Under the pieces are notes generated by a model, which was not told the DNA's origin, did no database searches, and saw nothing but the letters and a program-made list of their open reading frames with translations. A stretch of DNA of 64,000 nt, taken from Takakia lepidozioides. Its lineage: Eukaryota; Plantae; Bryophyta. The position numbers and the translations under genes are program-made. The DNA lies in contig CM060734.1 of assembly GCA_030704615.1 (NCBI GenBank), forward strand, positions 42,842,001 through 42,906,000. Direction: 5' to 3'. Positions 18,991-49,488 of this stretch are shown in pieces. The stretch's first letter is position 1. Each line of letters starts with the position of its first letter.

Positions 18991-21710
18991 TAAAAGATTT
19001 TTTTTTTTTTTAAAGAAAGGGACAGAGGCCCTTTTAATCAAATTAAATTAAACAAAGGTTCAAAAGGTGGAAATAATAACCACCTAGGGAGGCCGAGGAG
19101 GCTAACAGAGGGGGAACTTCCCCGTTACCCTAGCGAACCTGCTAAGCAGAAGGGGAGAGAGAGAGAGAGGTGCAGAATAGGAACAGTAAGAGGAAAGTCC
19201 AGGCAGTCCAAAAACAATCTGGAACTAAGCAAGGAGAGAGGGGCCCTTTACGCAAGGTTAGGAAGATGGACACTGAAGCAGCATTCTAAAGCATAAATCG
19301 TGGAGAATCGAAGCTGCGAAGGAGGTGAGGGAGGTGAGGGCCTCGAAGCAGAGCCGCAGGTATTAAAATCAGAACTTGAGCTGAGTTCTGGATTTAGTGT
19401 CTCTAGCTCGCTTATGATGCCAATTGAATTCTGATTCCTCCCCGTCACCATGAATCATAGAAGTCTTGAAGCAGCTTCCGCCCCCGTTGCTCCGAAGTTC
19501 TGGGAAGAGCTGTACAGACAGTAAACCATGCTTTCCTCCCCGTAGTAAGCAGGTCATGGTAAGTATGAAATGATATTGATCTGCCTCTGGAGGGTTTCCC
19601 CTCGAAAACCCAAGCACATCTACTTTTCCACAAATTCTATAATGTAAGAGCTCTAAGACCTGCCCAAACTGGACAGACGTTTTTTGGCTGGCCAGGTAGA
19701 AAATTAAGCAGAAGCAGAGATTGGGGAGGAGGGTTTGGAAAGATGTCCCAGTGAGAGTAGAAACTGATGACCAAACTCCAGATTATGTTTGACATATTGC
19801 AGAGCAGTAAGCAATGTTCAATAGATTTTGGGTTTGCATGACAGAGAGTGCATGTTGGATCATCCTCATGTGTCTTCCGTCTGACAGGGAGGATCCTATG
19901 TGCGAGCTTCCAAAGGAAACCTGATAGCTTGGTCTGTCCTTCCTCCATATGTCTTTCCAGATGTTGTTCCATGTGTTCTGGCCAAGTTGCAGGCTGCCCC
20001 ATTTGTTGGACCACCTGTTTTTGAATGAGCGCGAGGGGTTGATGAGAGCATAACTTTTCTTGACAGAGTAGGAAAAAAATGGTGTTTTTTTCTTATCCAT
20101 CCACCTCCACTCCGCCGGGTCAAATTGCAAATCAGTCAAGGGGCATTTGAGAAACCAGGTTAGAGTTTCTTGTCGAGCCCATTGAGCTTCCAAACCCGGA
20201 GGAGGCGTGGGGTTGGGATTTCTGAGGCTGTCCAGCACCCTGATGTGGAACAGCGAAGACCGATTCATCTCCACTCTTTCTGAACATGTGAGATGCCCTT
20301 CCAGGTCAGCCAAGAAACCTAGACCAGACACCACCAGTTCTGTAGATGTCAAGACAAGCATGACCGGAATGTGATTCGCTTGTGAAGATGTCATCCAAGC
20401 AGGGGTTATGGATGTGTGGTCATCTTCATCTAGCAAGGGGCTCATATATTGAGGCACATTGGCAAGTATGATGTTCCAGGCCCTGGCTCTCCTCCGACCC
20501 ATCATTTCAGACGCCATTGCCTCACTCATGAATTGACCATCCAACCGCATATTGGCAATGTGAGTGAAACATTGTCTTCCCAGAAAGCCCATCTCGGGGT
20601 TTGGGTAAGTAGAATTCCAGAGTCCATGTTGTAGTTGGCAAACAAAGGTTGCCGCAAGCATTCTTGCTTATTTGCTGACATTCTTTGTGTGAGATTGCCT
20701 CTCATGCAATGCCATGCTTTCCAGATGGACTGCCAGGGTCTGGAGCCCAATGAGACTGCGGTGTTTCTGCCTTGAACTATCCATCTTAGTGATTGAGCCC
20801 AGAGATGAGAGGTTGTGGGTAGGGACCCCATCAAGTAAGGTTGAATGAGCTTGCTCCATGGCGCATCCATGTGTGTTTATTGCCCTTGGAATCCATTTTG
20901 CTAGCAAAGCCTTGATCTGAGCAGCAGGGTCAATAATGCCTAGCCCACCTTGCATTTTCTTCTGACATGACTGCTCCCAGGAGAGCAACGCTCTTCTCAC
21001 ATGTGCTGCCGTAGTGACTTAATTTCTTTGACCATGGACTTGTCTGGATCCCACACCGCCGTGAAGTACCAGATAGAGTTGGAAAGCACCTGGTTTGCCA
21101 CTAGTGTCCTTCCCACAATTGATAGCATGGTTGTAGACCAGAAAGCGAGATTTCTTTTGAATCTTGTGATCACTGCTTTCTATGTGGTCTGCTGCAACAT
21201 GTTTAGGACTATCTGGTGACCTAGCAGAGTATGAATCTGTCCTTCCTGTAGCCAGTTTAAGCCCAGATCAGCTCCCCAGGCTTGACAGTGAGCAGTGCCT
21301 ACTCCACTATGTAGTAGAGACAGAATTCCCATAGATTTCCTCCAGTTGACCTTAAGCCCTGAACCTAGGCAGAAAGTGTGAAGGGCTTGAAGTGCCCTGT
21401 CAACGTTGCTGCGTATGGAGTTATCAAGGAGAAGGCAAGTATCATTTGCATGCATGGACAGCTTGAGCATTTCAGTATGCAGGGTGGGCAGTTGAAGACC
21501 GAGAATATCATGTGTTTGTCAAGTTATTTTACCACTAATGTGAAACTAGCTAGGAAATAGCTAGCTTTTACATATTGACATTTGGGATTGGCCCAAGTGT
21601 CAATCCAGGGTTCAAGGCAGATTTAGGCCCTAGAGTGGTTATCTTCACGGCAAGCGCGGGAGGCTCATCTTTCTCGAGTTGAGCCTCACCGCGCCTAGCT
21701 ATGGCACCGT

Positions 21711-22110
21711 CACTGGTCACAGCCGTCACAGCTGTCACAGCCCCAAAAGCCACAGGTCACAGCCTGTCATAGCTCTACACAGGTCACAGGGTCACAGCCC
21801 ATCACAGCCCCAAAGGCCACCTGTCAGAGCCTGTTAGAGCCCCCAAGGCCACAGGTCACAGCCTGTCACAACCCTACAAAGGTCACAGGGGTCACAGCCC
21901 CAAAGGCCACAGCCTATCACAGCCCCTCACAGCCCATCACAGCCTGTCACAGCCCTACACAGGTCACAGGGGTCACAGCCCCAAAGGCCACAGCTTGTCA
22001 CAGCCCCACAGGCCATAGGGCACAGCCTGTCACAGCCCCTCACAGCCCATCATAGCCCGTCACAGCCCCACAGGCCACAGGGCACAGCCTGTCACAGCCC
22101 GCCACGGCCA
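21711..22110. repeat. CACAGCC / GTCACAGCCCC degenerate tandem array
   Basis: About 400 bp of units such as GGCCACAGGTCACAGCCTGTCACAGCCCC, immediately after repeat A1. Confidence 0.9.
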
Positions 22111-23465
22111 ACCATAGGAGTGCTTGCGGTGGATGCAGGTGCAGGTGTAGGCTATGTTAGGAACCTAGTATTCCTCATAGTGCGGAAAACCCTTAACAGA
22201 GGAGTAGAAAGCAAATCACCGTTGTTTCATGGTGATGGTCGGTAGCGACAATCCCTTTCTGGGACATTCCACTCAATCTCTACGCAGATCTTCAACAATG
22301 AAATGGAAGTTAGAGAAAACTTACTGGCGCCTTCTTAGGTTTTGAAATTGGATCCCCTTCTGCAGCTTTCCTCTTCCCTCTCACATCTGCTGGAATTTCT
22401 GTCTGCTCTAGGGTTTCTGGACCTTCTCCCGGTTCAGCGTTCCCCGTACTTCCACCTCCTTCAGTTTCCCTGCGAGTCATATCTGCATCCACAGGCTGGT
22501 TTCCAACGCGCACTGTTATCGCCGACTGTGTCACAGCCACTGCCTCAGTCTCGGTCTGCTCTTGTGAATCAGTCTCCGCGTTCACCTGCTGCCTTGGCCC
22601 TGAGTTCTCCAACAAACGACGCCTCGTTATTTGCTCTCTTGCTCTGCGTCTCTCTCTAAGGGAAGTAAAATAAAGAGACTTTCTTCTATTTTGTATTGTA
22701 GAAAGAACCCTCTCCAGCTTAACTACCACTCTCCCTCTAAGCGCAAAAAGTATAAAAACGACGTGACTCCCGATTTCTTGCGGGATTGCGTGCGTTGTGG
22801 CTTGTCTCTAGAAGCATCGGATTCCCTCTCGTCATTCCCTTATTAGTGCACATGCCAGCAATTAGTGTACAGCTGTTCGTATTCAATATAGTTATCGATG
22901 TCTGACGTGTGTCGCCCAAAATAAATGGCGTGTTCTTTATTAGAACGGTTTCAATATTTAAAAATAACAGCGAATCCCAGAAATCTTTGCGCACAGTCTT
23001 AGACAAATATATGTAAATGAACGAGAGTTTGATGACAAATTTTGGGATATCATACACGTTCATCCTTGTTAGCCAACCCCACGTTCGTTTCACATTTTGA
23101 ACTTTCCAGGTGTGCATGATCATTGGTAGTAGTATAAAGATGCATTTACTTAATCTGCAATCCCACCCTCAGATCCTGTGGCATGCTTCCAGGAAGTTGG
23201 CTTGTTATTGTGTTTATTGATGAGGTTCGGTTTAACAGCTGCCGACATTGCTCCTAGGGATACTCTGACCACAGGGCCCACAAAAAAAGTAATTAAAATG
23301 GACGGCTGCATATCTGGAAGGAATAACAGAATATGCACAGTCGTCGTCTAAGCTTCCTCCGCCATATTCTCTGCTCATTCTTCAACTGTGTTATGGAGAC
23401 ATCAGTAAACCGATTTACACTTAAGGTCTGCGATAGCAAGGTATCAACGTACGCGAGGAAGGAAG

Positions 23466-24578
23466 ATGGCTTCCTCTGAAGCGGAGTTCTTCTCTGACGA
23501 CAAAACAGTGCCGTTCTCCCATGAAGTCCTTGACAATGGATTTGCAATTGTTCTGGAACATGTCTTGGCTACCCGTTTTCAGCTTCAGAATGGCTCCATC
23601 TTTTTGGAGAAAGAGGTGTACGATTTGAAAGGGAAGTTGTTGAAATACTCTTTCCAAAACCGTGATGAGACGGCTCATGTCAGCCAGTGGAGAGTGCGCC
23701 TTGGTCGATACAGAGTACTTGGAGAGCCTCGGCAAAAGTCCCTTGGATCATATGTGACGCCCGGGACTGCTGCTTCGGTCGTTGAAGACAAGAGGGAGGT
23801 GGTGGTGAAAAAAGAACAGACGTCCTCCACTCCAATCGTTGAGCTTTCAGATTCGTCCGATGATGACATAAGAGAAATTCCAAATCCAGTCCTTCCTACT
23901 GTGGTTGGAGAAGCTGATGAAGAAGAGATTTGTAGTGTCATTCCAAAACTACGGGCGATGGGAGGAATGGCTGGATTCAAAAGTGAGTTGCGAGGAATTG
24001 ATTGGGAATCTTTGAAGCAGGTGCCTGTGAATTTCTTGCCAGAGACTTTTGATGGCGATATCCTATTCGAGCTGCCTCCTCCTCCGCGAGTTGGAGGTGT
24101 AACAATCATGATGCATGGAATGGACAAGAAACACGACGGGCACCCGTGGTGCAGAACAAAAACATCCAATATTCAGAATGATGACAAGCTTGTTTTCAGG
24201 AGAACAGTTTGCAATGGACACCTTAGGTGTGATAATTTGAATTGCAGACACTTTCTTCAGTCTGGGGTTCATAATCAAAGCGAATGGGAGGGTCTGGCGG
24301 AAAATCCATTTCAGCCTGGGACTGCCCCACCACCGGCAAACACTTTCGTCTGCAAATTCTGCAAACTTGTGCCATCCTGCTTGGCGCTCTGCGGAGCAAC
24401 AATGTACTATGTTGTCCACCGTTTGAAGAAAGACAGCACAGTCAAAGAGAAGTCCCCAACTTGGGAGACATTGTCTTCATTCCTCACTCTGGTAAATTCC
24501 TTATCCACTCCCCTCCTGTTCACTTGGTTCTTGCAGTGTGATCAAATGTCCTTTGAATTGAATGGCTTTGGGGGGTGA
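23466..24578 (+). CDS. Cys/His-rich protein with a GCM-like zinc-binding motif; probably DNA-transposon-derived and C-terminally truncated
   Basis: 370-aa ORF. MDKKHDGHPWCRTKTSNIQND...FRRTVCNGHLRCDNLNC...CKFCK...CLALC resembles the GCM/WRKY-like Zn fold spacing. No catalytic transposase domain is visible. Confidence 0.5.
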   Translation: MASSEAEFFSDDKTVPFSHEVLDNGFAIVLEHVLATRFQLQNGSIFLEKEVYDLKGKLLKYSFQNRDETAHVSQWRVRLGRYRVLGEPRQKSLGSYVTPGTAASVVEDKREVVVKKEQTSSTPIVELSDSSDDDIREIPNPVLPTVVGEADEEEICSVIPKLRAMGGMAGFKSELRGIDWESLKQVPVNFLPETFDGDILFELPPPPRVGGVTIMMHGMDKKHDGHPWCRTKTSNIQNDDKLVFRRTVCNGHLRCDNLNCRHFLQSGVHNQSEWEGLAENPFQPGTAPPPANTFVCKFCKLVPSCLALCGATMYYVVHRLKKDSTVKEKSPTWETLSSFLTLVNSLSTPLLFTWFLQCDQMSFELNGFGG

Positions 24579-24756
24579 AGGCTGGGAAATGTCCATCGTG
24601 GGTGAACGGAGAGAAAAAACCCTTTGCCTGTGAGCTTGTTGTTGTGGACATTCCAGACGGGCATAAGCCGCAACAAGTTCTCTACCCGGTTACCTTGTGG
24701 AGAGGGGGTTAGGGACATGTTCCTGACCGGTTGAGTGATAGTTTGTCAACACGGAG

Positions 24757-27700
24757 ATGCCACTAGTTGCTGGGGACAGTGCCAGTTCGAGCACTAGCGA
24801 TACTAGTGGGTACACGAGACGAGGTGTGCGGTTTAGGCCACCTTCACCTCCTGTGTCTTCTACGGAAGGTTCTGATTCGGATTGTGAATCAGGAGGACTC
24901 ACACCGGCGGTGCAAGTTGTTTCCTTGCCATTATTGATGATTTTATCCAAGAGTTTGATAGTTGCTGTGATTTGCAGCAAATGCGCAATCCACAACTATT
25001 TACGCCTTTCATGGCATGGAAGGGGCTGTTTCAGCACCTTGAGGGGCCGCCTATGGATGATTACCATGAGTTCAGGCAGGGGCATGAGGTTGAGATCGAG
25101 GAGTGGAGGATGTACTGGTCATCCGACTATGTCTCCATCACTAAGGGTACTAGAGCCACGAGGGCAGTGGCTACACCTGCCGCTGCACCGGCAGCTTCAG
25201 CAAGCAGCAGTGGGACTAGTGGCACCGTAGCTACGATGTCCACCCAAGACACTACCGCACCAGCACCAGTACCCGTGCCTGCCTTCAACCCTATTGTGGA
25301 GTTCTTCGAAGAATTGAGATGGAACTACCAAAGGGTGATGACAGAGAAGTTGTGGAGCTTGCAAGAGTTCCAACGGAAGCGACTGAGAGCTTGAGGGAGG
25401 CTTTCACTCGCATGAGGTGCTTGATAATGTAACCCAAGGGTTACGGAAGCTCAGGCAGTCCAATTCTGGTATGGGATATTGGACAAGGAGCTGAGGAAAA
25501 GGGTGCGGGATGCAACTCTTCTACAAGCGGCCCAACCCACCTTAGTAAATGTGTTTTTGCTGGCAGAGCGGATAGAGCTCAACATGGTGGAGGAACGAGT
25601 GGTCATGGTGGGATTTGCTAAGGAGACACTACAGGGTAGTGGTGCTCCTAGCCAACCACTACCTCAACATGCTCAAGACAACAAGGGGGCCCAGGTGAAG
25701 CCCAGGGAAGGACAGAGAGGACCTCAGATGCAGGGGTCTCTATCTTCATTTGCAGGCCAACAACGGGCAGATGTGGTGTGTTGGACATGTGGAGGACCCC
25801 ATGTCAAGAAGGATTGCCCAGAGGGAGGCAAAGGGCCGTCACATGCACAACCTGCACAGTTGTAGTGTGGCCATTGTGGAAAGCACGGGCATGGAAAGGC
25901 CCAGTGTTATGGTTTGCATCCTGAGTTGCGCCCAGGCCAGTTCCAAGGGAACAATGGTGGCCGGGGGCGAGGTGGGGCAGCCCAAAGAGGACAAGGTGGC
26001 CGGGCACGAGGTGTAGGCCAAAGGCAAGCTCAACATGGCCAAGGACGCGGAGGTCAGGGTGTAGACCAAGGCATGGCCAACCGGCTTCAACAGCTAGAGC
26101 AGAGGCTCGCTGCCATGGCTACAGCTTAGGTGGTACCGGCTCCAAGGCCAGATGGTCCACCTCCTGCTCCTGAGGGAGGAGATATGGGATGGGATTCATG
26201 TGCGGAGCAGCACTACCACTAATGCAGGTGGAGTCTGCTGCAGCCGTAACTCGAGGAGCAGCACGAGTTCCTGAGCCACGAGGTGCAGAGGTGGAGTTGG
26301 ATCCACGACGTGGGAGGCAAGCCGTCAGGCTAGGCTTCCTCAGTCATTCACATTGGTGGAGACAGTGTCGACGCCATCCATGGCACCTAGTTCTTGCCCG
26401 ACTGTTACCGAGGCAGAGGTTACTATGCCATTGGGGAGAGCTACACGAGGAGCACTACTACCTAGTGTTGCCAAGGCTACGGCAGCTAGTGTGCTACTGG
26501 GAGCGGCCACATCTGTGTGCCAGGCTCCATTGTTCTCGGCTACCATGATTGCGACGCCGGGGGGTAAGACCAACTGAGGTGTTCAGGCTGGCAGCTACAC
26601 TCTGTGAGAGTGGGGAGGTTACTTCATCTTCCGCGGAGATAGTGGGAGGTGTAGTGCAGGATGGATCCTCGGATTTGAGGGTCAAGACTGCCACGGCGGC
26701 ACCATGGTAAGCTGCAGCTGCCAGGTTGATGGAGCTGCCAGCTAGGCCAGCCATTGAGCGCGCCATGGTGACACCTGGAGTTGTCATGTTAGACAACCAG
26801 GATGACATTTTCTATTTGAGTGGACCGGCAGGCAAGAGGTACCGGCCACTGCGGGTCTTGTTGGACTCGGGAGCTCAGCCATTGATGTTGGGTAGAGCTG
26901 CTTGCCAACACCAGAGGAGATCTTTGATGCCATCGGGCATGCTGAGGTCTTTAGCACTTAAGATTTACGATCCGGATATCACCAGTTGCCGATCAAGGAG
27001 GCGGACAAGGCAAGGATTGCCTATATCAGTGGCGGTTCTTACCATTTGGGCTTAAGAATGCTCCTGCAGAGTTTCAGAGAGTCATGGATAGGATTCTAGC
27101 AGGGGTGGACTTTGCTCGGTGCTACATAGATGACATCATCATCTTTAGTGCTACGGTGGAGGAGCATGAGAGACACCTTCAGGTGGTATTGGAGCGCTTT
27201 GAGAGCGCACGGATTGAAGTTGCATCCAGGGAAGTGCAAGTTTTTCCACAACCAGATTGAGTATCTGGGTCACATGATATATCCTGGAGGATTGGGGGTA
27301 AAGCAGACTAAGGTAGAGGCCATTGCACAAATTCCATGCCCCACAGATGTGAGCCGAGTTCGAGCTTTCATGGGGTTGGCAAACTATTATAGACGGTTTG
27401 TCAAGGGATTTAGTGCCATTGCAAAGGCTCTAACCAAGCTAACCAAGGTGGACCGTTGTTCTAACCGCTTCCCTCACTAACCGTCGTCCGTGAACTAACA
27501 TGTTCCATTCGCAGGTGTCGTTCCCCACAGTCGTTCCTGTCCTGCTATCGTTCCCTATGGTCGTAATAGCTTGTGTGAAACTGTGACGGACTGTGACCGG
27601 CGTGTCGGGCTGTGACTGGCTGTGCGACTGTGTTTGGTTGTGTCAGGCTGTGACTGGCTGTGTGGCTGTGTCGGCTGTAACGGGCTGTGTTGGCTGTGAT

Positions 27701-29807
27701 GGGCTGTGTCGGGCTGTGCGGAAGATGAGCAAGAACGAGCTTTTCAAGAGCTCAAGGCGAGGTTGACCTCGGCGCCTATCCTGAGACGACCTATCAGGGG
27801 GCGTCCCTTTCAGCTGCATACGGATTGGAGCATGCTGGGGCTTGGAGCGGTGCTCACTCAGGTGGATGATGAGGGAAGAGAGTTCGTAGTGGCTTATGCT
27901 AGCCGCTCGAACAACGCTGTAGAGGCTAAGTACAGCTCATATGAGGGAGAGTGCTTAGTTGCAGTGTGGGCCGTGGCACACTTCAAGTGCTATCTATACG
28001 ACAATCTCTTCACCCTTGTCACGGATCACCAGCCACTCAAGTGGTTGATGGAGTCAGACAAGCTTACGGGGAAGCTTGCACAGTGGGCATTCATACTCCA
28101 GGAGTATGACTTTCAGGTTGTGCATCAACCGGGTTTGGTCAATCGGGATGCAGATGGATTGAGTCGCAATCCATGCACGAGCCAGCAAGATGACACTGGA
28201 GCTTGGTGGCATGGTGAGACGGACGAGGAGATGGTGCCGGGATGGCATGCATCTGTCTTTTTGTGTATCTTGGCATCGGGAGGTCAGGTTGGACCTACAA
28301 CATGGACGACTGTAGACGGATTGTCTGAGGACCCTGAGGCTAGTGATGAGCCAGGTGGTACTCGAGATATACATGAGGATTCGGCTGTGTTGGACTACCT
28401 CCGTACTGGAGACACGGCAGCCACTGTGACTGTCAAAGAGAGGGATTAGATCCTGCAACGAGCCAAGAGGTTCAAGTGGGAGGGGATACACTTGCTCCGA
28501 GTATGGGAGGATGGTCGGGGGGGGATTGTGCCTCACCCCACACAGCGTGCACGGTTAGTGCGGCATGCCCATGAGGAGTTGGGGTATTTTGGAGTGCGAC
28601 GCACTCACAGTCTACTGCAGGGGCAGTATTGGTGGCGTGGTATACACACAGGTGCAACGGTTTGTGGCTAGGTGCATGGTGTGTGACAGGGAGCGTGCTT
28701 CATTCAATGCCCCTACACCCCAGTTGCATCCTCTTTCGATCATGGGATTGGGCTGCAGGTGGAATCTTGACTTCGCAGGACCGTTGCCACTGACTATGCG
28801 CCACCTCAAATATGTGTTGGTGATGGTGGAGCACTTCTTCAAGTGGATTGAGTTGGTTCCATTACCTGACAAGGCTAGTGAGGGGGCTGCGTATGCATTC
28901 TTGGATCGTGTGCTTAGCCGATTCGGTGCTCCAGTTGAGGTACTCACGGACCAAGGGAGAGAGTTCTTGGGGGAGTTTCAGGCTTTGTGTGATAAAGCCT
29001 TGATATCAACGCACCACTTCTCGGGATCATCCTGAGGCTGATGGCTTGACAAAGAGAGTTGTTCAGACGGTGAAGAGGGGTTTGCGCAAGTATGGCTTAC
29101 AGAAGGGACACCTAGGAGATTGGGATCTTCAGATACCTTGGTTAGCCATGGGCTACCGGTTCAGCAAACAAACATCACTTGCCTCCTTCTCACCATATTT
29201 TCTTCTCTTTGGCCGAGAGCCAGATTTGCCTACAACCATTCGTAGGGACAATGCTCAAGTCCTTAACCTTGACGATCCGGACGTGTGGGTACGTGCATGT
29301 GATCAGCGTGCAAAGTTGTTCAAGAAAGTCATGCCCATGGCTTTTGAGAACCTTGCCATTGCACAGCACCGTGATACATTGAGGTATGTCACTATACGTG
29401 GTGGAGGTTATCGTCCTGGGGTTCGGCGATTTAGCCCGGATGACTATGTTTATTTGCAGCAGACTGCTCCTACGACCCTGGATGTCACTGCAGGGTGTGT
29501 TATTCTGAGGGTTCGAGAGGTGTTGCCCTCAGGAGTCCTGATCTTGGAGGGTCGGGATGGCATGACTTGGAAAGACCATGTGCGTAATTGTGCATCATGT
29601 CACCTTCCCAATGTCGATGGCAGAGTTGACCCAAACTTGGCAGTGGTACCTACAGGTTTGAGGTGCATGCTCTGTGGGTCTGCCAAAGGGGCAGCCACCA
29701 TGCTGGTGTGTGATCGATGCTCAAGAGGTTGGCATATGGGATGCTTGACACCACCTCTTGAGAGGGTTCCTGATGGAGATTGGTTATGTCCACACCGCTT
29801 GGGATAG
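24757..29807 (+). pseudogene. Disrupted gag-pol of the outer Ty3/gypsy element, integrase with C-terminal PHD finger
   Basis: Zn knuckles CWTCGGPHVKKDC and CGHCGKHGHGKAQC; protease LLDSGAQ (~26860); RT YIDD (~27123); RNase H LHTDWS, TDHQPL; integrase LDFAGP, TDQGREF; PHD CMLC...CDRC...WHMGC...WLCPH (29664-29795). Multiple stops and frameshifts; apparent deletion between protease and RT at ~26905. Confidence 0.92.
27455..27719 (-). repeat. Inverted internal fragment of the LTR of the nested/solo LTR family, inserted in the RT-RNaseH linker
   Basis: Reverse complement matches ~42590-42855 (GACTGTGGGGAAC.ACACCTGCGAA.GGAACATGTTAGTTCAC.GACGACGGTTAGTGAGGGAA.CGGTTAGAAC). No TG..CA ends and no TSD. 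Confidence 0.9.
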
Positions 29808-31037
29808 TGGAAGTGGACATGACTAAAGGCAGCTATAAGACATGGGAGGCCAAGCTCATAGGAGTCAATACACGAGATCCCAGGCTCAAGTTCACATGTT
29901 GCAAGACGACGACTAACGATGGGGCAACTTTTGCACTCGGCCTGATCTATCAAGTTTGAGTGTAGTAGGGACAGTGGTGTAGCCTAGTGGTTGGACTAGT
30001 GGTATACTAGTGTGTGGCATCCACGTGTATTGTATGGTTTTGGACAGCGATGTAGTTGTGTAACGATATGTATGCGCACGACAGCTGTCAAGTTATTTTA
30101 CCACTAGTGTGAAACTAGCTAGGAAATAGTTAGCTTTTACATATTGACATTTGGGATTGGCCCAAGTGTCAATCCAGGGGTCAAGGCAGATTTAGGCCCT
30201 GGAGTGGTTATCTTCACGGCAAGCGCGAGAGGCTCATCTTTCTCGAGTTGAGCCTCACCGCGCCTAGCTATGGCGCCGTAGTGTGGATTCCCCATGGCGT
30301 GGGGTGCACTTGGCTTGACTTGTATTTGAGTGATGAGTTTATATATGCATGAGTTTATGCTTCAGCTTTGTGAGCTCGCATGAGCTTGTGCTTGTATTCT
30401 CTTCTTTATCAATTGTGTGGACTAGTGACTGCCATATGTTAGAGGACTGTCGGGGACTTAGACACTTATACGGGATCTGTAGGGTACCCTTAATTTTTGC
30501 ACAGACTGAGACCAATAGGAGCCTTAGGGATGACAGCAGCGCACTGTAGAGGGAGGTTACACAGTCGTCACAGTCGACACAGCCAACACAGCCCGTCACA
30601 GTCGTCACAGCCAACACAGCCCGTCACAGTCGTCACAGCAGACACAGCCGACACAGCCAACACAGCCCGTCACAGTCGTCACAGCAGACACAGCCGACAC
30701 AGCGAGAGGGGATCGGGCAAAGATGAAGAACGGAAGTGAAGATAGAGAGATGATGAATAGATGCTTGATATATGCAAGGCTGTAATGATATTGTAGAGTA
30801 GATTAGAGACACAATGGCTTCGGCCTAATACCTGATAAATCATAATCGGATACTTTTACGATACAATCACACTGTGTAGAGAGATCTGAGTGAAGCTGTG
30901 AAATGAATGGATGAGTTGATGGAATCCAATAGATTGATAAAGCAAACTGATACTTAATTATCAATGGTAAGATAGCTAACATGAATACCAAAAGGGAAAC
31001 AAATAGGAAACACCCCATGATACACTAGCTGTAGGTC

Positions 31038-31733
31038 ATGACTGATTGTTCTGCGCGGGCTGAGTACTTAGAGATTTCCAACTCTTCTATCTTGGAGTTT
31101 CCGCCTCGAATAGCGAAGGGATGGGTGAGTAAAAGCCGCGCGACATTTGGCGACCATACTGGGGAACTGAGTCATGAACAACCAGATGTGACAGGCATCT
31201 GGTGGGATCATGGTGGTTGGACCATTAAAGAATTTGAAGTGAATCAAATTCCCTGTGGAACGAAGGAAGAAAGATTGTCCAAACAATTCTTTCAAAGGTT
31301 CTTGGAATTGCCAGACGGTTGTAAAGAAAATATTCTTAAGCGAGTGCATGATGCTGATCCAGAATGGGGTCTGGAGAAAGGAGTGATAAAGATTTATCAG
31401 GTAGCCTGTAGAGGAAGAGCACGTTGGTTACCAACATTGGTTTATGTGATAGCATTGCTATCCATTAAACGAGTAGAGTTTGAAGGCTGGGAAGAAAGAA
31501 AGGTGAATGTTTATACTCATATGCATGAAGAGCTTGTACTGGTAAAGAATTGGATTCCAAAGGATATTTTGTGGATCAAACTCACACCAAGAACAGCTTT
31601 TCAGACTTGTTTGCCATATGGTTATATGGTAACGGAGACTTCAAGTATAGCCAAGGGTGCATTGAAGCTTGAAAGAAACCCAGGCATATACGAGAGATAT
31701 TACAGAAGAGAGTTTTGGTTATTGCCACATTAA
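31038..31733 (+). CDS. Extra 5' ORF upstream of gag, unknown function
   Basis: 231-aa open frame running from inside the LTR across the PBS and ending 21 nt before the gag-region ATG (31755). Trp-rich, globular-looking composition. Confidence 0.6.
   Translation: MTDCSARAEYLEISNSSILEFPPRIAKGWVSKSRATFGDHTGELSHEQPDVTGIWWDHGGWTIKEFEVNQIPCGTKEERLSKQFFQRFLELPDGCKENILKRVHDADPEWGLEKGVIKIYQVACRGRARWLPTLVYVIALLSIKRVEFEGWEERKVNVYTHMHEELVLVKNWIPKDILWIKLTPRTAFQTCLPYGYMVTETSSIAKGALKLERNPGIYERYYRREFWLLPH
31148..31165 (+). promoter_or_regulatory. Primer-binding site, probably tRNA-Arg
   Basis: TGGCGACCATACTGGG, 2 nt after the 5' LTR. Near-complementary to the 3' end of plant tRNA-Arg (…CCCACTGTGGTCGCCA, as recalled). 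Confidence 0.7.
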
Positions 31734-31754
31734 AAGAAATGAAAGACATGGGAC

Positions 31755-34700
31755 ATGAGTGATGAAAGAGAAGCTAGACGCCAGAGATATTCAGCAAAAA
31801 GAGAAAGCTATCTGAAAGCTAATTATCCATATCTTTGGGAGAGAGGAATAGACATAGGGGAATCATCTGGACCTCTCACACCATTAAGATCAAAGAGTAC
31901 ATCACCTATACCGGAAGAACTAGAGTTGGATGCCACTCCTTCTGTTTCTTTGCAAGAAAGATTAAGGGAATTGGTACAGGAAGAAGATCAATCACGAGGT
32001 GAAAGATCTGAGGTACATCCTTGGATAAAAGATTTGACAGAAATCTTTGATAAGAGTTGGCATGGAACACCAAAAGCAGGAACTCCAGTTTCTGAAGCAG
32101 AAGGTGAAGAAGGAGAAGAGGATGTGGCAGAGCCAACGGAGAGTTCAGACTCTCCAACACCATTACAGTTGAGTTACATGAGTGAAGAAGAAACCCAAGG
32201 GCAGAACTTGGAGGATGAAAACAGAAGAAGAAATTGAAAGAGGAAGAATATGAAGAAGTAGACCCAACAGCTGAGGTTGAGACTACAACCAGGACATCCC
32301 AACCCGTTGGACCTGGATCAAGTGGAGCACTTGGATCACAGGCCAACGAAGGTGTCGGCTCAGGGGGATCAGGCGGGCTGCCTGGATCTGGCTCTGGGGG
32401 GACAGGGAGTGTGGGAAGTAGTGCAACTGAAGCTGGGAATACTGTGAATATCGTGGGGCCAGAAGCAGGGAGTGCTCAAGGGCCACCACTTGGTGGAAGA
32501 TCCACCACAAAAACAACAGGTCCAGAAGGACCAGCACCAGCAAGGGTGCCAGCACCTGTCAGTGGGCAGAAGGTAGGGCCACAGATGGCGTTACAACCAA
32601 CACGGGCAAAACCACCCTTTCCAATATATTCAGGAAAAGGGGATCCCGATGTACACATTAGCCAATTTGAGCACATGTGTATAGTGAACAATGAGAATGG
32701 CGATGATGCCAAGATGAGATTGTTTCCTTGTTCACTTATCAAGAAAGCAAGTGAATGGTATGCAAGATTCCCTGATAATCATTTCCTAACCTGGAATGGC
32801 TTGAATACAACATTTCGAAATAGGTTCAGGACAAGTAAAACTGAGGATGAAGTGTATGGAAGTTTACAACAGCTGAAGCAGAAGAAGCATGAAACTGTTG
32901 AAGAGTATATGGAGAAGATGGAATTGATGATGAAAAAGCTGGCTGCAGTACCAGCACCGGTTTACAGAAGACTTGGTTTGTGAGTGGACTAAGACCAGAG
33001 TTGCAAAAGAAAGTGGATATGTTACCCCATAATACAGTGGAGGAGGCATTTGAAACTGCGAACAGAATTGAGCAATTGGGAATGCTCAGGAGAGAGAAAA
33101 AAGAAGATGAGGACTCTGAGGATGAGTCAGATGAAGAAGAAGAGCAAGAACTAAAAAGAAAGAGTAAGAGAAAGGAGAAGTTGAAGAGGGATAACTATGA
33201 AAAAAAATTGGAAGAAATCTTGAAGAAGTATGCCACAGAGGCTGCAACACATTGGAGGAAGGGTGTATGGTGTGCAAAGTGCCAGAATGAAGGCCATACC
33301 ACCACAGAATGCCACATGAAGGAGAAACACTGTACTATCTGTAAAATGGATAACCATTCTACTGAGAATTGTTACTACAACAGAAGGACAGCTGCAAGAG
33401 AACCTAGGCAAGTAAGGGTGCATCAGGTGCAGCCCCAGCCAAGAAGAAACAATGATCAGGACCACTATGGTAGGTCTGGTGGTTATAACAATGGCATGGA
33501 AGGGAGAGGTAATTCAAGAGGGAATTACCAAGGAAATTCCAGAGGCAACTATCAGGGTAATCCAAGGGGGAATTACCAGCCCGGGAATCAGGATTATAGA
33601 AATAATCCAAGAACAGACCAAGGGCGAGGACCCAATGGTGAAGAGCTATGTTACTATTGTAATCAGCCAGGACATCGCAAGGCAGCCTGTTCATTCTGGA
33701 TAAGACACCAGAATGAGATGAGAGCTCCTGTGAATGAGGGCCCAGTGGTGGCAGCTCACATGGTTAGGCCATGTGTTGTACCAGAAGTAAGTACAATGAT
33801 AGTAACAAGAAGTAAAGCCAAACTAATACCTCCAGTAGAAGAGAAGAAGAAGATGATAATGGAAGTGGCAATGATATGCCTGAAGATGAAGAGACTTGGA
33901 AAGATGAGAAGGAACTGCACAAGGAAGTGGCAGATACTATAAGGGAAATGCAGAAGAGTACTGATATTCCTGTGGCAGATTCCTCTGATTCTGATGGAGA
34001 AGAAGAAGGAGTGAGGAAGAAAGGAAAAAAAGAAGATGCAGACATGCAAAGTAATGAAGAGACTTTGGCTGAAGTAATATGCAGACCAAAGCAGAAATTA
34101 CCATTGGACAGCTATTAGCTGTGGCACCTTATTGTAGGCACAGGCTGTATCAAGCAATCAATCGAATTGCCCAAGAGACAGGAAACACAGACCTGAACAG
34201 CAAGGTGACCAGTTATAATGTGAAGCCGGAAGGGCGAGAAACAGTCATGGACTTTGATGATTCTATGCCAGTAATCCAATTGAGAATTGGAAGCACAGAA
34301 CTAACTGATGTACTGATAGATGGTGGTTCTGGAGTAAATATCATGACAGACCAATTAAGGAAGAAGCTTGGTCTAAGTAACATGAAACCAGCCCCATTTA
34401 CAGTAACAATGGCAGATCAAAGAAGTGTACAGCCATTGGGATTAATAAGAGGAGTTAAGATACAGATACAGAAAATGATCTTTATGATCACAGTAACTGT
34501 ATTAAAATGGATGAAGTCATGGAGGCTTACTCCTTATTATTGGGACGTCCGTGGCTGAAACAGGCCAGGGTATTCCATGACTGGAATTCTCAGTTACTAA
34601 CCGTGCATAATGGGATACACGAGATACAAATTACCACAAAGAAATCTAGTAGATTACCTGCTACAAGAAGACCTCGAGGAGTCAGAGAGTATGACTGGAA

Positions 34701-37700
34701 AGGAGGACTGGATGAGGAGCAGGAAGCTACCCTATTTGCTGCACACCCAGAGTGGGAGCAGGTTGCAGAGATGCGGCTGGAAAGCCTAAGTTGTTTGAGA
34801 GGTATCTGCTGTGGTGTAGTGACAGCAACACCAACTGAAGAGGAAACCAGCATTTACCCATCACATTTCTATGAAGAAGAGAGAAGGAGAAATAGAAATC
34901 CTAGAAGAACCAGCCACTGTGAGCTTACAGGATGAAGTGGTGACTGGTTGGACAATCACAGCTGATGAGCAGGTGAGGGAAGTAAAGTAAATGTGGGAAC
35001 TAAAGAGGAACCGAGGATGGTGAAAGTAGGAGCTGATTTGGAGCCGGAATTCTTCGAAGAAGCTAAAAGCTTGTTCATCAAATACAGAGATGTATTTGCT
35101 TGGAGCTATGAGGATCTAAAAGGGATACCACCTGAAGTCTGTCAGCATAAGATTGAACTGGAACCAGGGTCAGTACCAATCAAGCAGGCGAGGTATAGAA
35201 TGAATCCCAACTACGCACAGAAGGTTGGAGAAGAGATAAAGAAGTTGGCTGAGGCTAAGTTTATATACCCAATAGAGTATACAACTTGGTTGTCACCCAT
35301 TGTTATAGTTCCCAAGAAGAATGGCAAACTAAGAGTATGTGTGAACTATAAGAAGCTGAATGCTTGTACGAAGAAAGATCCTTTCCCTTTGCCATTCACA
35401 GAAGCAGTATTAGACACTGTGGCAGGCCATGAGATGTACTCATTCATGGATGGCTTCAGTGGTTATAATCAAGTGCAAGTGGCAGAAGAAGACCAAGGGA
35501 AAACAGCTTTCATCACAGACTGGGGGCTTATGCATACAAAGTCATGCCCTTTGGACTTTGTAATGCACCAGCGACCTTTCAGAGAGTGATAAGTGAATCT
35601 TTTCATGAGTATCTGGATGATTTCATGCAGGTATTCTTGGATGATTTCAGTGTGTACAGCTCTAAGAATGAGCACTTGCATAAATTGGAGTTATGTTTGG
35701 CCAGATGCAGGATGAGAGGTCTGGGCCTGAATCCAGAGAAGTGTACTTTCTGTGTGAACTCAGGGGTGCTTCTGGGACACATTGTGTGTAAGAAGGGACT
35801 CCTTGTGGATCCCAGAAAGACAGAGTCCATTAAAGCCTCTCCACCACCAGTGAATGTTAAAAGTCTACGGAGATTCCTTGGGCAAACCAGTTATTACAGG
35901 AGATTTGTCAAAAGGTATGCACAAATAGCAGCACCATTGAGCAAGCTTTGAAGAAAGATGCAGTGTTTGCCTGGACAGCTGAATGTCAACAGGCATTTGA
36001 GGAACTTACACTGTCAGTAACAACTACACCTGTGCTGATTAACCCTCACTGGCATGTAGTATTCATGTTCACTGCGATGCATCAGGAGAAGCGTTGGGAG
36101 CGGTGTTAGCCCAGAATGTTACAGGGAATATAGATTCACCTGTGTACTATGCTAGCCGGTTGATGAACAGTGCTGAGAGGAACTATAGCACAACGGAAAG
36201 AGAAGCATTGGCAATGATCTATGCAGTGAAGAAATTCAGGCATTACCTGTTGGGCAAGAAGTTTATGTTCTATGTGGATCACCAGGCTCTGATATACCTG
36301 GTAAACAAACCTCTCTAAGCGGAAGAAGCGAAGAATAGCAGATGGTTGATAATCTTGCACGAGTTTGAGTTCGAGGTTTTACAAGCCTGGGAGACTGCAT
36401 CTTGTGGCGGATCATTTGTCACGATTGTCAACAGGAGAACCAGCCACAGGAATAGATGATCAATTACCAGATGCGAGTCTCTTGCAGTGGAGGTGCAGGG
36501 AAGTGCAGATGACTGGTTAGATTGGCAGTGGCCAATCAGATACTACCTTGCTCATGGTCAGTGCCCACCTAGTTATGGTAAGGAGCAGAGGAAGAGAATC
36601 GCTGTATCAAAGCTTTACCTTATACTATGGTAGGAAGCAGAATGTATAAGTTAGGACCTGATGGAGTACTAAAACGATGCTTGTACCACCATGAAGTAAA
36701 TAAAGTTTGGCGGAAGTTCATAAAGGAGTGGCTGGAGGTCATTTGGAGAAGAGACTACCAGTAGAAAGATACTACTCGCAGGATACTGGTGGCCTACTTT
36801 GTTCAAAGATGTACACGAGTATTGTCAGAAGTGTGATGAATGTCAGAGGCTAGGACCTTTGCAGAGATCTGGAAGGATGGCCTGCATCCTACAATGCCTA
36901 CGGAACCATTTCAGAAATGGGGACTAGACTTTGTTGGACCAATTAACCCACCATCCAAGAATACACGAAACAGGTACATAATTACAACCACTGATTATAC
37001 TACAAAGTGGGTGGAAGCTAAAGCTTTGAGGGACAACACAGCCAAGTCCACAGCAAGGTTCCTGTACGAGAACATACTTACACGATTTGGCTGTCCCTTA
37101 GAATTTATCAGTGATCAGGGAAGTCACTTCATGAATGAGACCATTGAGTTGTTGACTAAAGAGTTATGATTGTGCATAGAAAGAGTACAACATATTACCC
37201 ACAGGGTAATGGGCAGGCAGAGGCTACCAACAACAAAATACTATGTACTATCTTGGCTAAGATAGTCAATGCAAACAGAACGGATTGGGATACAAAGCTG
37301 CTGACAGCTTTGTGGTCATACAGGACTTCATATAAAGTCACCACTAAGTATACACCATTCCAATTAGTATATGGTATGGAAGCCTTACTTCCAGTGGAAT
37401 TATTTCCTGTTACTACCATGAGAACGGAGTGGGGAAAAAGAATGGAATTGCAAGACTCCATCAAGGTCAGGAGGAAACATGAATTATACCATGTGGAAGA
37501 AGTACGTGCTGATGCAGCTGATAATATGACCAGAATTCAGATGAAGCGAAAGGAACAGTTTGATGAAGGCAAGTTAAAGACTTTTAAGACGGGGGATTTG
37601 GTTCTATGGTTGCAGAAGAAAGGAAAGATTCAAGCTTCTAAGCTTAAATCACCATGGAAAGGACCTTATGTCATACAAAAGATGTATGATAACAACACCG

Positions 37701-37756
37701 CCATGTTACAAACCATTAACAAAGAAATGCTGGGAAGAGTCAATGCAATAAGTTGA
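31755..37756 (+). pseudogene. gag-pol of the nested element (frameshifted as assembled)
   Basis: Gag YSGKGDPDVHISQF...ASEWY; three CCHC knuckles (CAKCQNEGHTTTEC, CTICKMDNHSTENC, CYYCNQPGHRKAAC); protease LIDGGSGVN; RT VPKKNGKLRVC, MDGFSGYNQ, FLDD; RNase H YYASR...EREALA; integrase GLDFVGP, SDQGSHF, GPY motif. No chromodomain. Confidence 0.95.
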
Positions 37757-37899
37757 AGGGGTACAGTGGTATCCATGACAAACCCTTGCAGCATGATTTG
37801 CATGTTGAACCGCAAAAGAGCAGTCACGGGCTGCACCAGTGTTACGAACGGAGTATGGGAGCACTTGTCGCTAGGCCCAGCATATATGACCAGGGCGGC

Positions 37900-38130
37900 A
37901 AAACAAACGTGACACAGCCTATCACGCCCATCAGGCACAAGCACAGACTATCACAGCACAGCACGACCACAACACCGCCTATCACAACCACACAGCAGGT
38001 CACAGCCTATCACAAGCTTACCACAGGAATCACAGCCTATCACAGCTTACCACAGTGCATCACAGCCTATCACAGCGTAACACAGTATGACACAGCCTGT
38101 CACAGCTCAACACAGCCTACTAAAGTCACA
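37900..38130. repeat. CACAGCCTATCACAGC tandem repeats downstream of integrase
   Basis: Repeated ATCACAGCCTATCACAGC(T/G)TA(C/A)CACAG units. Confidence 0.85.
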
Positions 38131-38503
38131 CGATCCATAGAATCAGTGACAAGTGGACGCATAATAACTTCAGGAAAATGGATGACGAGAAGAGAAAACG
38201 GAAATTACTTTAAAATAGACACGTGGAGGTCAGGGCGCGACACACAGCGAGAGAAAGAAGTGCTAAGAACAGGTGTCAAAAAGAAAGAGGACAAGAACGG
38301 CCGTCAAAGGGATGAAAGGCAGGCCCATTAATGAATACGGAAAAAGGGAAACGGAACGAACGGCAAGTACAGAAAAGCGGAATTCTTGTCACATGTGTGA
38401 TCCTAGTGGACTATCCAACAGGGAAAGTCCACTAAAGAAAATAAAATCTAAAATCCAGTCACAGCGGATACAGCAATAGAAAACCAGAGAAAGGATCAAG
38501 AAA

Positions 38504-41500
38504 ATGGAGGGGGAAATTGAGCGCAAGAGGCGGCGTCGTTCTGAGTAACGGGCGTCTCGACGGGACAGACCATCAATGCTATACTTGGAAACTATGGAGG
38601 AACTAACAGACTATACGCTCGCAATATTACTTACGCAGTGGCATAGACACGAAAGGACAGAGCGGAGCTTTCTCTTGAGCGATGCTTGCAAGCCCCGCAG
38701 GCTTACAAGAAATTACCCATAGCTTTCTGCGGCAACCATACGTTTATGCTTTGTGCACTACAGGCATTCCTGCAGTTGTTACAGCCAAAACAGTTCTCTG
38801 AGTCTAAAATGAAGAGGGTGAGAGGAATGGAGGAAATCAGGGTGAAGAGCACCACAATTCTGCAGAAACAAACAATTGCTACCCCACAGGCGATACAGTT
38901 ACGGAGGAGCTGAGATTGCAAGGATTGCAAAGCCTAGATTGGACATTACACCATAGACAGTACATGTTACAATTTTTGCAGAACTTTGAGCCAAGGACAG
39001 GAACAACAACGGTGAAGAGAGTAGGAATTGATGATTACTCCCCTATACCTCCAGCAATTGTTTCGATTGCCAGCAGGTCAGGTGCATGTGGAGGAACACA
39101 GGGCAAGACTGCAAATAGGGGACTTATTCCAAGAAGGGAGTTTCTTTAAAACTCAGGGTTATGCTTGTACCAAGGTGTGTACCCAGGGCTAAAAGAGGTA
39201 GGCCAGGTATTGAACGTTCTGATTGCCATTGAAACAGAACCAACAGTATTTGAGCAGATCCTTCACGGAGGAAATACTCAAAGGCCTGAAGGGGACAAGA
39301 GGTACAATGGGCGGACATAATGTACAACGCACTGGTGCAGAGGAGATGAAAAGATTACAAGGTACTACCGCAAAGTCTCCTATCATAGTGTCTGGCCCAA
39401 TCATTGCTCAAATAATCCTTGATTCTGGCATACTTGATGCGCAAGAAAGAAAGGAAATGGGAGTTTTGAGCCAGAAACAACTGCAATGGAAGAGCAAGGC
39501 TCTTCACACAGTGAGGGTGGACTAGCAAGGGCAAACCGAGACTAAGAGGCAGAGACGGGGAAAGACTTTGTAGTGGCGGATCCACTGGCTTCACGGATTC
39601 CGCATATAAATGTTTCCAAGCTCATGGCCAGGAAGGGGCACAGCAGCACACTGGAAGCAGGACCTTCAGAGAGGGAGGAGGAAGTTACTTCTGTATCACA
39701 ACATCACAGCCCAACTGATCGACTTGTCACAAGTCACAAGTTATCCATGCAGCTCAATCAGAAATAAATTGATTTGGAAAGAGAAGGGTTAGATATTCCA
39801 ACTACAGAAACAGATAGTGGCAGAATGGAGAAGGGGGACCTTCTCTATGAATATTCTGGTCTGGTCAAGGAGGACAGAGATCCCAAAGGTGCAACAGTTG
39901 CCAAAGAAAATCCTGAGGTGCATATAATACACACACCTGTGTCGGAGGTACCACAGGCGGAAGGTCATGACACTGTAGCACCGGTGATAGATGAAGTAGT
40001 TCAGGAAGAAAATCCGGTGGGACAATGGCCTGATGGTTCGTGAGACATCACACTGTTGAAGATCAGGAGGAACAGCAGCAACCTCACCATGATGACCCTC
40101 AACAGGCAATGCTGATGAGTTCCATAGGCAGGACACTTAATTGTTGGGGACTTATGTCAAATCCCATGTTCCAATTACCCAATTGACAGCCTTGAGAGAG
40201 GAACTCAGGAAGGAGTTTGAGGCTCGACTAGCCACTGAGTGTGCAAACAAGGTCGATGAAGAGGTCACTCTCAAGATGCAGCAGGACTTGGGAAATACAG
40301 AAATGGCTTTGCAATTGGCCAAGGAACAATTGATTGAGGCAGGCCTCGCGCAAGACCAGTTGCACGAAGCACATAAGCAACAGCTATACCAAATGCAGGT
40401 GCAGCATGAAAGCAAGTTGCAAGAACTGAATGCACTACATACGGAGTTGCAGACAGTGCATGACAGGATGGCGATACAATGTGCTACATTCACAACTATG
40501 CTTGACCAATCTACAAAAGAAATAAACAGTCAAGCGGAAAAATGTACGAAGGCAGAAGAAGAGAATGTTGAGCAAATGAAGCTCATTGTCGATATGAAGA
40601 ATACAATCTGTCGCAATGAAGATACTTTCAAGCAATACAGGCAGATTGAAGCTGATCAAGAGAAGCACATCGTGGAGTTGCAACAAACCATCATGGCCAA
40701 TAGAAATGAAATCGCGGTCAATAACAAGGCTTGGAAGGAAGCCAATAATCTACTTGCTGCTATGCGCAATTTGTTGAACCTCAGGCGAAGCGCATGGAGG
40801 CTTTACAACAGCAGTTGGAATTGTACAAGCTAAGAGAGGAGCAAACTCTCAGGGGAACCACAAGCAACTTGGTGGATAACAGCCTTATGCAGGTCTGGTT
40901 AGCACAAGGGCCAGTAGAGGGCAAAGCACACGAAAGCTCACCCAAAGCGAGATGAATGAGCTCAGACTGCAGGTGCAGAACATTGCCACAACTACTACTA
41001 CTATAGACAATGTCTATAGTAGGATAGCAGAGTTACAAGAGGATGTAGACGGACTGCAGACTCAAGTGGAAGACCTCACTTCAAACATCGACAAAAGAGT
41101 CTATATCCCTCAGGAACAGCTAATGGCTTCTTATTTACAAGCCAGAACTTTGGCTTTTCAGTCTTCACAGGAGGTGCAGGAGATGCCAATGATACAAGAG
41201 CCAGTACCACCACCACCACAACAAGTCACTGTACCAGTAGCTGAACCTGTGGTTACTACAACCACACCACAGCCACCACAGCCGGAGGTATGGGGCAATG
41301 CCGCTTTTAACCCACCTAAAACTCCAGCTGCAAGGAGTACAGTAGGGCTATGATTATGCCCTTCAACCAAATTCCCATCATGTTGGATTTGGCTTGGAAA
41401 GAATTTAGTCCTCCGCAGTCATTCGCACATTACTACCAAATCATGCGTATTTGGCTGCCAGTGGCAACTAGGACTAAAGTTCTTCCGAACATCGACATAT

Positions 41501-42354
41501 TGAAGATCATCACTTTGCACAATACTGGCACGAGGCAGGTACCATGTTGAGGGAATTGATTGCTTTCCAGGTTGTACATGGACTCATTTATACCAAGACC
41601 AAGGAGGTAGCAAGTATTGTCATGGGGTGCGGGTTATACTACGCTGCTTGTTTTCTGGTACGTTACCACATTGAGCAACAAAAGATGCAAACACGCTTTC
41701 TGAGTTATTCCAGTGGAGATCATTGGGTATTACCTTCGGTGCCACCTCATATGTACCTATATGACCCAAAAGTTATGATGCAAAAGGATTCTCAAATTCG
41801 TTCATGGTTTCAAGCGGCCTGGAACCATTTGTCAACACAGAAATTCGCATTGATGACATTTTCTATAAGGGACATGTGGCATGGAAATACTTGCACGCTG
41901 CACCAGTAATTGGTACCCCATCACCTGGACAGACAAGGAGCTCAGTGTCTACACCAATTTTGCTGTTCAGCGGTTACACCAAGTTGTAAAATACAAACTT
42001 CCAGACATGGTAGGACAACATTGTATGCCCCAGATGATTCCACAAAAAGTTCGAAAATTAAAACACCTGAGAGGCGATGAGGATTCTGATACAACTGTTT
42101 CTTCACCGAATTCTTTTGACATGGGAGAAGACTATGCAATTCAGATGGCAGAGAAGAAGCGACGGGGGTCTCCTATGCCGAAAGGTTACCTCGATATCAG
42201 CCTCCAGAGGGCCTCACTTATCCAGGTAGTGATCAACCATCTCCGTCAACCAGAGACAGACCTCGGGCTCGTACACACAGTCCGCCACGAAACTCTCAAC
42301 GTCAAAAAGGTGCTCACTCACAAAGGTTTGCTAGTCGAAATCAGTAAACCGTGA
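38504..42354 (+). pseudogene. Large extra 3' ORF(s) of the nested retrotransposon, with a long coiled-coil segment (frameshifted as assembled)
   Basis: Overlapping + ORF fragments tile 38504-42354 almost continuously (e.g. 39223, 39774, 40141-40833 and 40952-41353 heptad-rich, 41350, 41544, 41881) and end just before the PPT. Confidence 0.7.
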
Positions 42355-49240: not shown

Positions 49241-49488
49241 GGTATTCACATTGGTCATTAGCATTTCTCATAAAATTGATGTGACCATATAGATCTAGAT
49301 AAAATCTCGATAAACATCATTGTCTAGATAAAATTCATTGTCTTCATAGAAAATATTGATATTGATATTTGTCTTCAAAGTTTTATAGTTTGTTCTATGA
49401 TCTATCAAACTATGTTTTAATTATAATTATCATTATTCTAATTGTAGCAATTCTTTTTTCTTTTTTCTTTCTTGGGCAGCTTAAGAAG

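Follow-up and report, generated by a model that had tools for sequence, protein, structure and literature searches.

A decayed Ty3/Gypsy retrotransposon with the domain order RT-RH-IN-PHD, which spans positions 21517-43540 of the window (the whole stretch of 64,000 nucleotides that was analysed), carries in its interior a copy of its own right end joined through the dinucleotide GC to a copy of its own left end. The question raised by this locus is how an element whose two termini are already joined in the genome would be integrated. Reading the mechanism wholly from inserted copies, we assign a probability of roughly 0.7 to the explanation that the palindrome at this joint is the attachment site of a Ty3/Gypsy element, placed head to head in the middle of a repeat, and that the DDE integrase likely cuts after each CA and inserts both halves of the site rather than the ends of the cDNA.

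The element has the layout A-pol-B-GC-A-B, where A and B are the left and right repeats, and it sits within a minus-strand L1-like host element with TGTT and TCTT as flanks. The reading frame of the host is in register across the insertion for a duplication of 1, 4 or 7 nt. The features are as follows.

21513-21516, plus strand: left target-site duplication TGTT, one mismatch to the right copy TCTT (4 bp in relatives)
21517-21710, plus strand: A1, the left terminal repeat, which begins with TGTC; of its approximately 326 nt the first 194 are left and match 30086-30279
24757-29807, plus strand: decayed gag-pol with zinc knuckles, protease, RT (YIDD), RNase H, integrase core and C-terminal PHD finger
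27458-27718, minus strand: fragment of another LTR family within the RT/RNase H region, 84% identical to 42585-42854, reversed
29963-30083, plus strand: B1, internal copy of the right repeat ending in GACA, aligning to 43419-43540
30080-30089, no strand: palindromic att-att junction GACA-GC-TGTC, GACAGCTGTC, with the spacer GC at 30084-30085
30086-30411, plus strand: A2, full internal copy of the left repeat, its end placed near 30411 from loose ends
30232-30248, plus strand: predicted transcript start and self-primer, also at 21663-21679 in A1; complementary to the post-A sequence of other family copies
30412-30436, plus strand: 5' part of B2, the A/B joint presumably lying near 30411/30412
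30437-43370, plus strand: nested ordinary LTR retrotransposon splitting B2, with TG...CA ends and the 5-bp target-site duplication CCATA; separate from the feature under study
43376-43540, plus strand: rest of B2 with the right terminus ending in GCGCACGACA
43541-43544, plus strand: right target-site duplication TCTT

In the domain scan of the window copy, matches were obtained for RT_RNaseH (1.6e-32), rve (5e-10) and PHD (3.2e-10), and the zinc knuckles, the protease and the RT were read from motifs in the translation. Judging from the many stops and frameshifts in gag-pol, the insertion in the RT/RNase H region and the loss of the third catalytic integrase residue, this copy is dead. The remaining part of A1 was sought in 21711-24760 and not found there, and the PBS is thus missing; the approximately 3 kb between A1 and gag-pol are of uncertain origin. 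An ORF of 370 aa in this region (23466-24578, plus strand), with a cysteine-rich C-terminal half, had no Pfam match and no tblastn match in 80 related loci; it has probably entered independently, taking the place of the A1 end and the PBS. Degenerate tandem repeats of the CACAGC type (9-10 nt) were observed at 21711-22120, 27581-27718, 30554-30703, 37900-38130, 42500-42740 and 50116-50460 and recur in several different elements of the window. The nested element belongs to the ordinary Ty3/Gypsy type. Its LTRs measure about 1 kb, the 5' LTR being internally deleted, a tRNA-type PBS-like sequence lies at 31146, and the 3' part contains about 4 kb of additional sequence; an LTR related to its own lies reversed at 49486-50575.

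The sequence-only reading of this locus had described a right-end copy joined via GC to a left-end copy as a perfect 10-bp palindrome, and this description holds. GCGCACGACA is read at 30074-30083, followed by GC and by TGTCAAG from 30086; in an exact-match search a second copy of GCGCACGACA was found only at 43531-43540, the right end of the element (terminus at 43540), and 30086-30279 is 97% identical to the left end at 21517-21710. Since the window contains 67 perfect 10-bp palindromes the palindrome itself is not rare, and it counts as non-chance because its arms are real termini and because it is conserved.

That the arms are termini was apparent from public sequencing runs, in which contigs of the window copy's own family pass over into unrelated flanks immediately behind 30083 (35 contigs in X1 with an agreement of 0.37, and 29 in X2) and immediately before 30086 (21 in X2 with an agreement of 0.39); these positions are therefore the true termini of the family. 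Among the variants listed at 30083-30086 in these contigs there was no indel, and the sole listed spacer change was G>A at 30084, with 29,523 of 838,907 summed contig depth in X1, where contig depth is not copy number, rare variants are lost in contigs and X1, X2 and X3 represent one sample. In X1, 20 contigs have loose ends behind 30400, from which the end of A near 30411 was placed, and joints in the same run from 30436 back to about 29980 show that the stretch 30412-30436 continues into B. Within the B1 region the family contigs diverge behind 29943 and 29979.

With the integrase-PHD tail as query, 84 longer proteins were obtained among 1,664 candidates. The named protein matches came from Marchantia (76%), Calypogeia, Riccia, Closterium, Coleochaete and Hariotina, several of them with a C5 methylase domain, and no Klebsormidium record was among them. 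A metagenome scan gave 444 relatives, the best 80 of which were analysed, and no relatives were found in a scan of viral contigs. From the form count 21 of the 80 loci were left out, 15 because they stop within 240 nt of the match and L021, L050, L052, L056, L057 and L078 because a deletion or an interruption precedes the end of B in them; L047 was included later, by motif. One of the omitted loci, L052, stops about 13 nt short of the usual B end, at an inner GTCACGACA repeat (2300-2335); this may reflect a cryptic attachment site or a deletion. The 59 rows reaching the end of B correspond to 46 distinct insertions by flank (best 80 of 444).

The spacer was 2 nt long in 19/19 distinct insertions with a BLAST-placed A right after B (best 80 of 444) and also in 5/5 distant elements (L015, L016, L033, L047 and L049), which were selected by the motif itself; in a control set of coding sequence GACA-NN-TGTC occurred 6 times in 181,014 nt. 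The spacer types in these 24 distinct insertions were GC (13), GT (6) and AC (5), with TC in one duplicate assembly (best 80 of 444). GT and AC each differ from GC by a single C-to-T change in a CAG/CTG context, a pattern that methylation decay would be expected to produce. In L033 and L049 the palindrome is extended to 16 bp and has different arms. The expected conservation of the junction and its 2-nt spacer was borne out, the junction being kept in relatives as distant as 48% protein identity. One could instead suppose that the junction arose by a single rearrangement, or by chance, in an ordinary LTR element that has decayed. The number of palindromes in the window and the heavy rearrangement of the window copy would fit this, but the recurrence of the same junction across the window's family and in the 24 distinct related insertions leaves this explanation with a practically negligible probability.

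In relatives with both ends the target-site duplication is 4 bp long, perfect in 4/7, with one mismatch in 2/7 and with two mismatches in 1/7. A staggered cut after each CA would produce such 4-bp duplications and copies ending exactly at the junction, and the integrase is predicted to cut there on each strand. The junction stands, as first proposed, as a pre-joined att-att site (CA-GC-TG), at which the inserted copies start and stop exactly, and it is conserved. Cuts of this kind are reported for the 2-LTR circle junctions of foamy virus and HIV-1, where a palindromic CA-NN-TG (AT in foamy virus) is cut after CA on both strands to give 2-nt 5' overhangs (PMC1180852, PMC11054761); for the foamy-virus integrase the staggered cut on the palindromic circle junction was obtained in vitro (PMC1180852).

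A further claim of the sequence-only reading, that the junction removes the need for ends defined by a PBS and a PPT, did not survive comparison with the relatives, which keep both signals. A G-run (PPT) is located directly before B1 in 54/54 rows of the three closer subfamilies (best 80 of 444), and G-runs also precede the junction in the five distant elements, with the motif about 100-170 nt behind them. Directly 3' of A, a self-priming PBS with a perfect complement of 11-16 nt is present in 6/10 left repeats (12 nt in L004, L014, L024 and L025, 15 in L060 and 16 in L016), and its target within A is 26-32 nt after the TATA in L004, L014, L025, L060 and L016. The complement is only 6-10 nt in L010, L039, L067 and L069, which is within the range of the control maxima (7-11). 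In the window's own family the consensus of the loose end behind 30400, compared by eye, complements 30232-30248, and no PPT was seen. The window copy appears to lack both signals and looks signal-free because A1 is truncated at 21710 and there is no purine run of at least 8 before B1, the 5' part of B1 appearing to have been lost together with the PPT; this was probably the origin of the earlier idea. In the relatives the signals would define the ends of the cDNA and the A/B joint, not the ends used for integration, and their being dispensable is not supported.

A circle templated without PBS or PPT is a proposal made for the split-repeat elements of the PAT/Ngaro type. Applied to this locus, as was done in the sequence-only reading, the RNA would run into B2, the internal junction would template a circle and the integrase would open it. 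The repeat order is indeed that of split-repeat elements with a tyrosine recombinase (legends of Fig. 1e and 4c in PMC5890265), and the window copy has neither PBS nor PPT. The PPT before B and the PBS after A in the relatives speak against such a route, as does the A/B joint, which should then be as constant as the spacer but varies in the L060 type, and we regard it as very unlikely.

Priming from a site that directly follows A would be a form of self-priming, and the details of that mechanism in the Tf1/Sushi and Tcn1 groups form the background to our model. Self-priming has been reported for these two groups (PMC6317226) and the PBS after A resembles it. With the PPT directly before B and the PBS directly after A, the LTR made by reverse transcription would therefore be B-GC-A, with the TG/CA tips inside it, and the inserted copies would be permuted, which differs from canonical Ty3/Gypsy elements. 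This anatomy of the family argues against an integration of linear cDNA by its ends.

According to the preferred explanation, the RNA would start in A1 about 30 nt after the TATA box and prime itself at the PBS, and ordinary LTR-type reverse transcription from the PBS and the PPT would give a linear [B-GC-A]-X-[B-GC-A] molecule whose ends lack the TGTC...GACA tips. Of the two junctions the upstream one should be the first to become double-stranded, since plus-strand synthesis has about 9 kb left to cover before the downstream one is complete, and the integrase would therefore assemble on the upstream junction and make a staggered cut there, leaving 5'-GC overhangs. Host repair would join the leftover cDNA ends (the end of A and the start of B), before or just after strand transfer, to produce A-X-B-GC-A-B, which would be the sole form with the terminal redundancy needed for recopying. 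If the two B copies annealed during repair, or if a 1-LTR circle were inserted, the outcome would be A-X-B as a dead end, and short forms could also originate from later recombination between B1 and B2.

Both forms were found among the relatives. Of the 46 distinct insertions (best 80 of 444), 23 are long (B, spacer and A, with B2 also visible in 17) and 23 are short (B running into the flank). The complete order A-X-B-nn-A-B was found in L024, L025 and L060 and the order A-X-B in L004, L010, L014, L067 and L069, and the long (A-X-B-GC-A-B) and short forms are interleaved on the trees. The mean distances of short and long copies were 0.094 versus 0.098 (p = 0.21) and 0.078 versus 0.082 (p = 0.71), and because the trees are star-like this age test does not separate an origin of the short copies at insertion from a later one. 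Two loci have other arrangements: in L001 (1284-1797) the junction and a full A are followed by an inverted partial A copy instead of B, possibly an aberrant repair of a free cDNA end, and L016 has the layout X-B-junction-A-PBS and may be a collapsed assembly, a tandem or a circle.

The short forms, which make up 23/46 of the 3' ends (best 80 of 444) and have clean 4-bp duplications, would suit an integrase that trims the linear cDNA at both junctions by deep 3' processing, with A-X-B as the normal product and the long forms as rarer by-products of repair or tandem formation. However, the long forms are as common as the short ones, and an A-X-B RNA would have neither a second A for strand transfer nor a junction and could presumably not propagate. 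As a general account of the family, such trimming is highly improbable, and it may operate beside the main route and supply short copies.

The long form is also an exact circular permutation of a 2-LTR circle, and it could be imagined that a free circle is made first, the integrase then choosing at random which of its two identical junctions to open. In vitro, integrase is able to cleave circle junctions (PMC1180852), and the variable A/B joint of the L060 type would fit. A free circle predicts that the mirror form A-B-GC-A-X-B is as frequent as the long form, but in a small count from two subfamilies it was seen at 0/10 left ends (p = 0.002 if its frequency equalled that of the long form; 95% upper bound 26%). 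This result speaks against random opening of a free circle and favours capture of the upstream junction, and we consider the free circle unlikely; a circle that is opened only at the upstream junction falls under the preferred explanation.

If host repair makes the A/B joint, as the preferred explanation has it, the joint is of interest in itself. Among the 13 L060-type copies it differs in length, with two deletions among the variants, while the spacer is always of one length; the tract around this joint is of low complexity, so that slippage could imitate repair scars, and in the L025 type the joint is uniform. Between B1 and B2 no column with a different majority was found in the 13 L060-type copies, as expected if each cycle remakes B2 from B1. 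Only in 5/13 of these copies was the B1 of the same copy the nearest sequence to B2, and there was no such signal in the L025 type (n = 3).

When compared with known classes, the family has the pol order RT-RNase H-integrase with a Ty3-like RT (the best solved-structure match of homologue P0006 is Ty3 RT, E 4e-97), TG...CA termini and a target-site duplication within the range of 4-6 bp. The D,D35E motif of the DDE integrase is intact in L015 and L016, which have an open pol of 1047 aa, the junction and an upstream methylase domain, whereas the window copy does not keep the third residue; a PBS after the 5' repeat and a PPT before the 3' repeat are present in relatives and absent in the window copy. 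Two complete identical terminal LTRs were not found, as A stands at the left and B or B-GC-A-B at the right. RT-RH-IN, TG...CA, the 4-bp duplication, the PPT and a self-priming PBS are shared with Ty3/Gypsy elements (Metaviridae), especially Tcn1 and Tf1/Sushi (PMC6317226). In contrast to chromoviruses (Tcn1, Chlamyvir), the family has a PHD finger where these have a chromodomain, and no chromodomain family was listed in the 84 homologues or in the pol of L015 and L016. Troyka elements, with CG...CG termini and 3-bp duplications and known from animals only (PMC12440569), were excluded on the TG...CA ends and the 4-bp duplication.

Elements of the PAT/TOC1/Ngaro group integrate by a tyrosine recombinase. 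No tyrosine recombinase match was obtained in nine ORFs of L015, L016, L060 and L069, nor in the window ORFs scanned, and rve is present; the DDE integrase, the 4-bp duplication, the PPT and the PBS likewise set the family apart from that group. The split direct repeats A...B-A-B of L024, L025, L060 and the window copy are like the A-ORFs-B-A-B layout with an internal B-A junction in PAT/TOC1/Ngaro, and A-coding-B-A-B is given as the DIRS layout in the legend of Fig. 1e (PMC5890265). On its sequences, the family is thus like Ty3/Gypsy in enzymes and priming and looks like PAT/Ngaro in layout, and its integration route is likely to be unusual.

This layout is already in print once, found in KnitGypsy-Dnmt3 of Klebsormidium nitens (de Mendoza et al. 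2018), for which the legend of Fig. 4c gives a DIRS-like repeat order with Gypsy domains and the passages that deal with it give no termini, junction, PBS/PPT or mechanism (PMC5890265). L015 and L016 resemble it in combining a C5 methylase domain and a Gypsy pol, and both have the junction; common descent is suggested by this likeness of layout and methylase domain. In junction-bearing relatives with open frames the C5 cytosine methylase domain follows the protease (L015, 2477-4660; L016, 976-5082; P0014, P0034, P0042 and others). Gypsy-DNMT3 is also named in a preprint (bioRxiv 10.64898/2026.05.21.726589), the pertinent passages of which contain nothing on repeats. Gypsy-7a_cRei of Chlamydomonas reinhardtii is an active Gypsy element with a PHD finger in Gag-Pol and an LTR drawn in subparts, the left LTR lacking, according to the legend, the last 8 bp of the right one (PMC9940879), and it may be related to the window's family. 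None of the titles and abstract openings searched described this junction or mechanism.

The circle-junction model of retroviral integration was proposed in 1984, tested and abandoned, and linear DNA is the accepted precursor (PMC11054761). Retroviral 2-LTR circles arise from ligated cDNA ends (PMC11054761), whereas the junction of this family is genomically inherited and apparently is the sole attachment site. It seems rather probable, from the comparison of copies, that in a widespread and long-lived LTR lineage of green plants and algae the attachment site has moved from the cDNA ends to an inherited internal palindrome, that this lineage integrates only by endonucleolytic opening with host end-joining rebuilding the replicating form, and that it represents a natural, obligatory version of the dropped retroviral route. 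The circle junctions of IS3-type elements are a counterpart, of which the lineage would be the eukaryotic equivalent. If this is true, the circle-junction question reopens with a family that supplies both the enzyme and a defined 10-bp substrate, and an integrase working from an internal site, both in cutting and in insertion, could possibly be useful for the insertion of circular DNA. LTR finders that require two terminal LTRs (PMC6317226) would overlook this family, which is abundant in liverworts and green algae.

The C-terminal part of the polyprotein showed two additional features. The best structure matches of the PHD finger of P0006 (985-1032) were the fingers of CHD4, PHF12, PHF21A, KDM5, ATXR5 and UHRF1, many of which bind unmodified H3 tails, and this finger may steer insertion into gene-poor chromatin. 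A long extension behind the PHD finger with a conserved unnamed domain was observed in L047 (10287-11410), P0027, P0029, P0030 and P0044, and L047 retains the junction at 14205.
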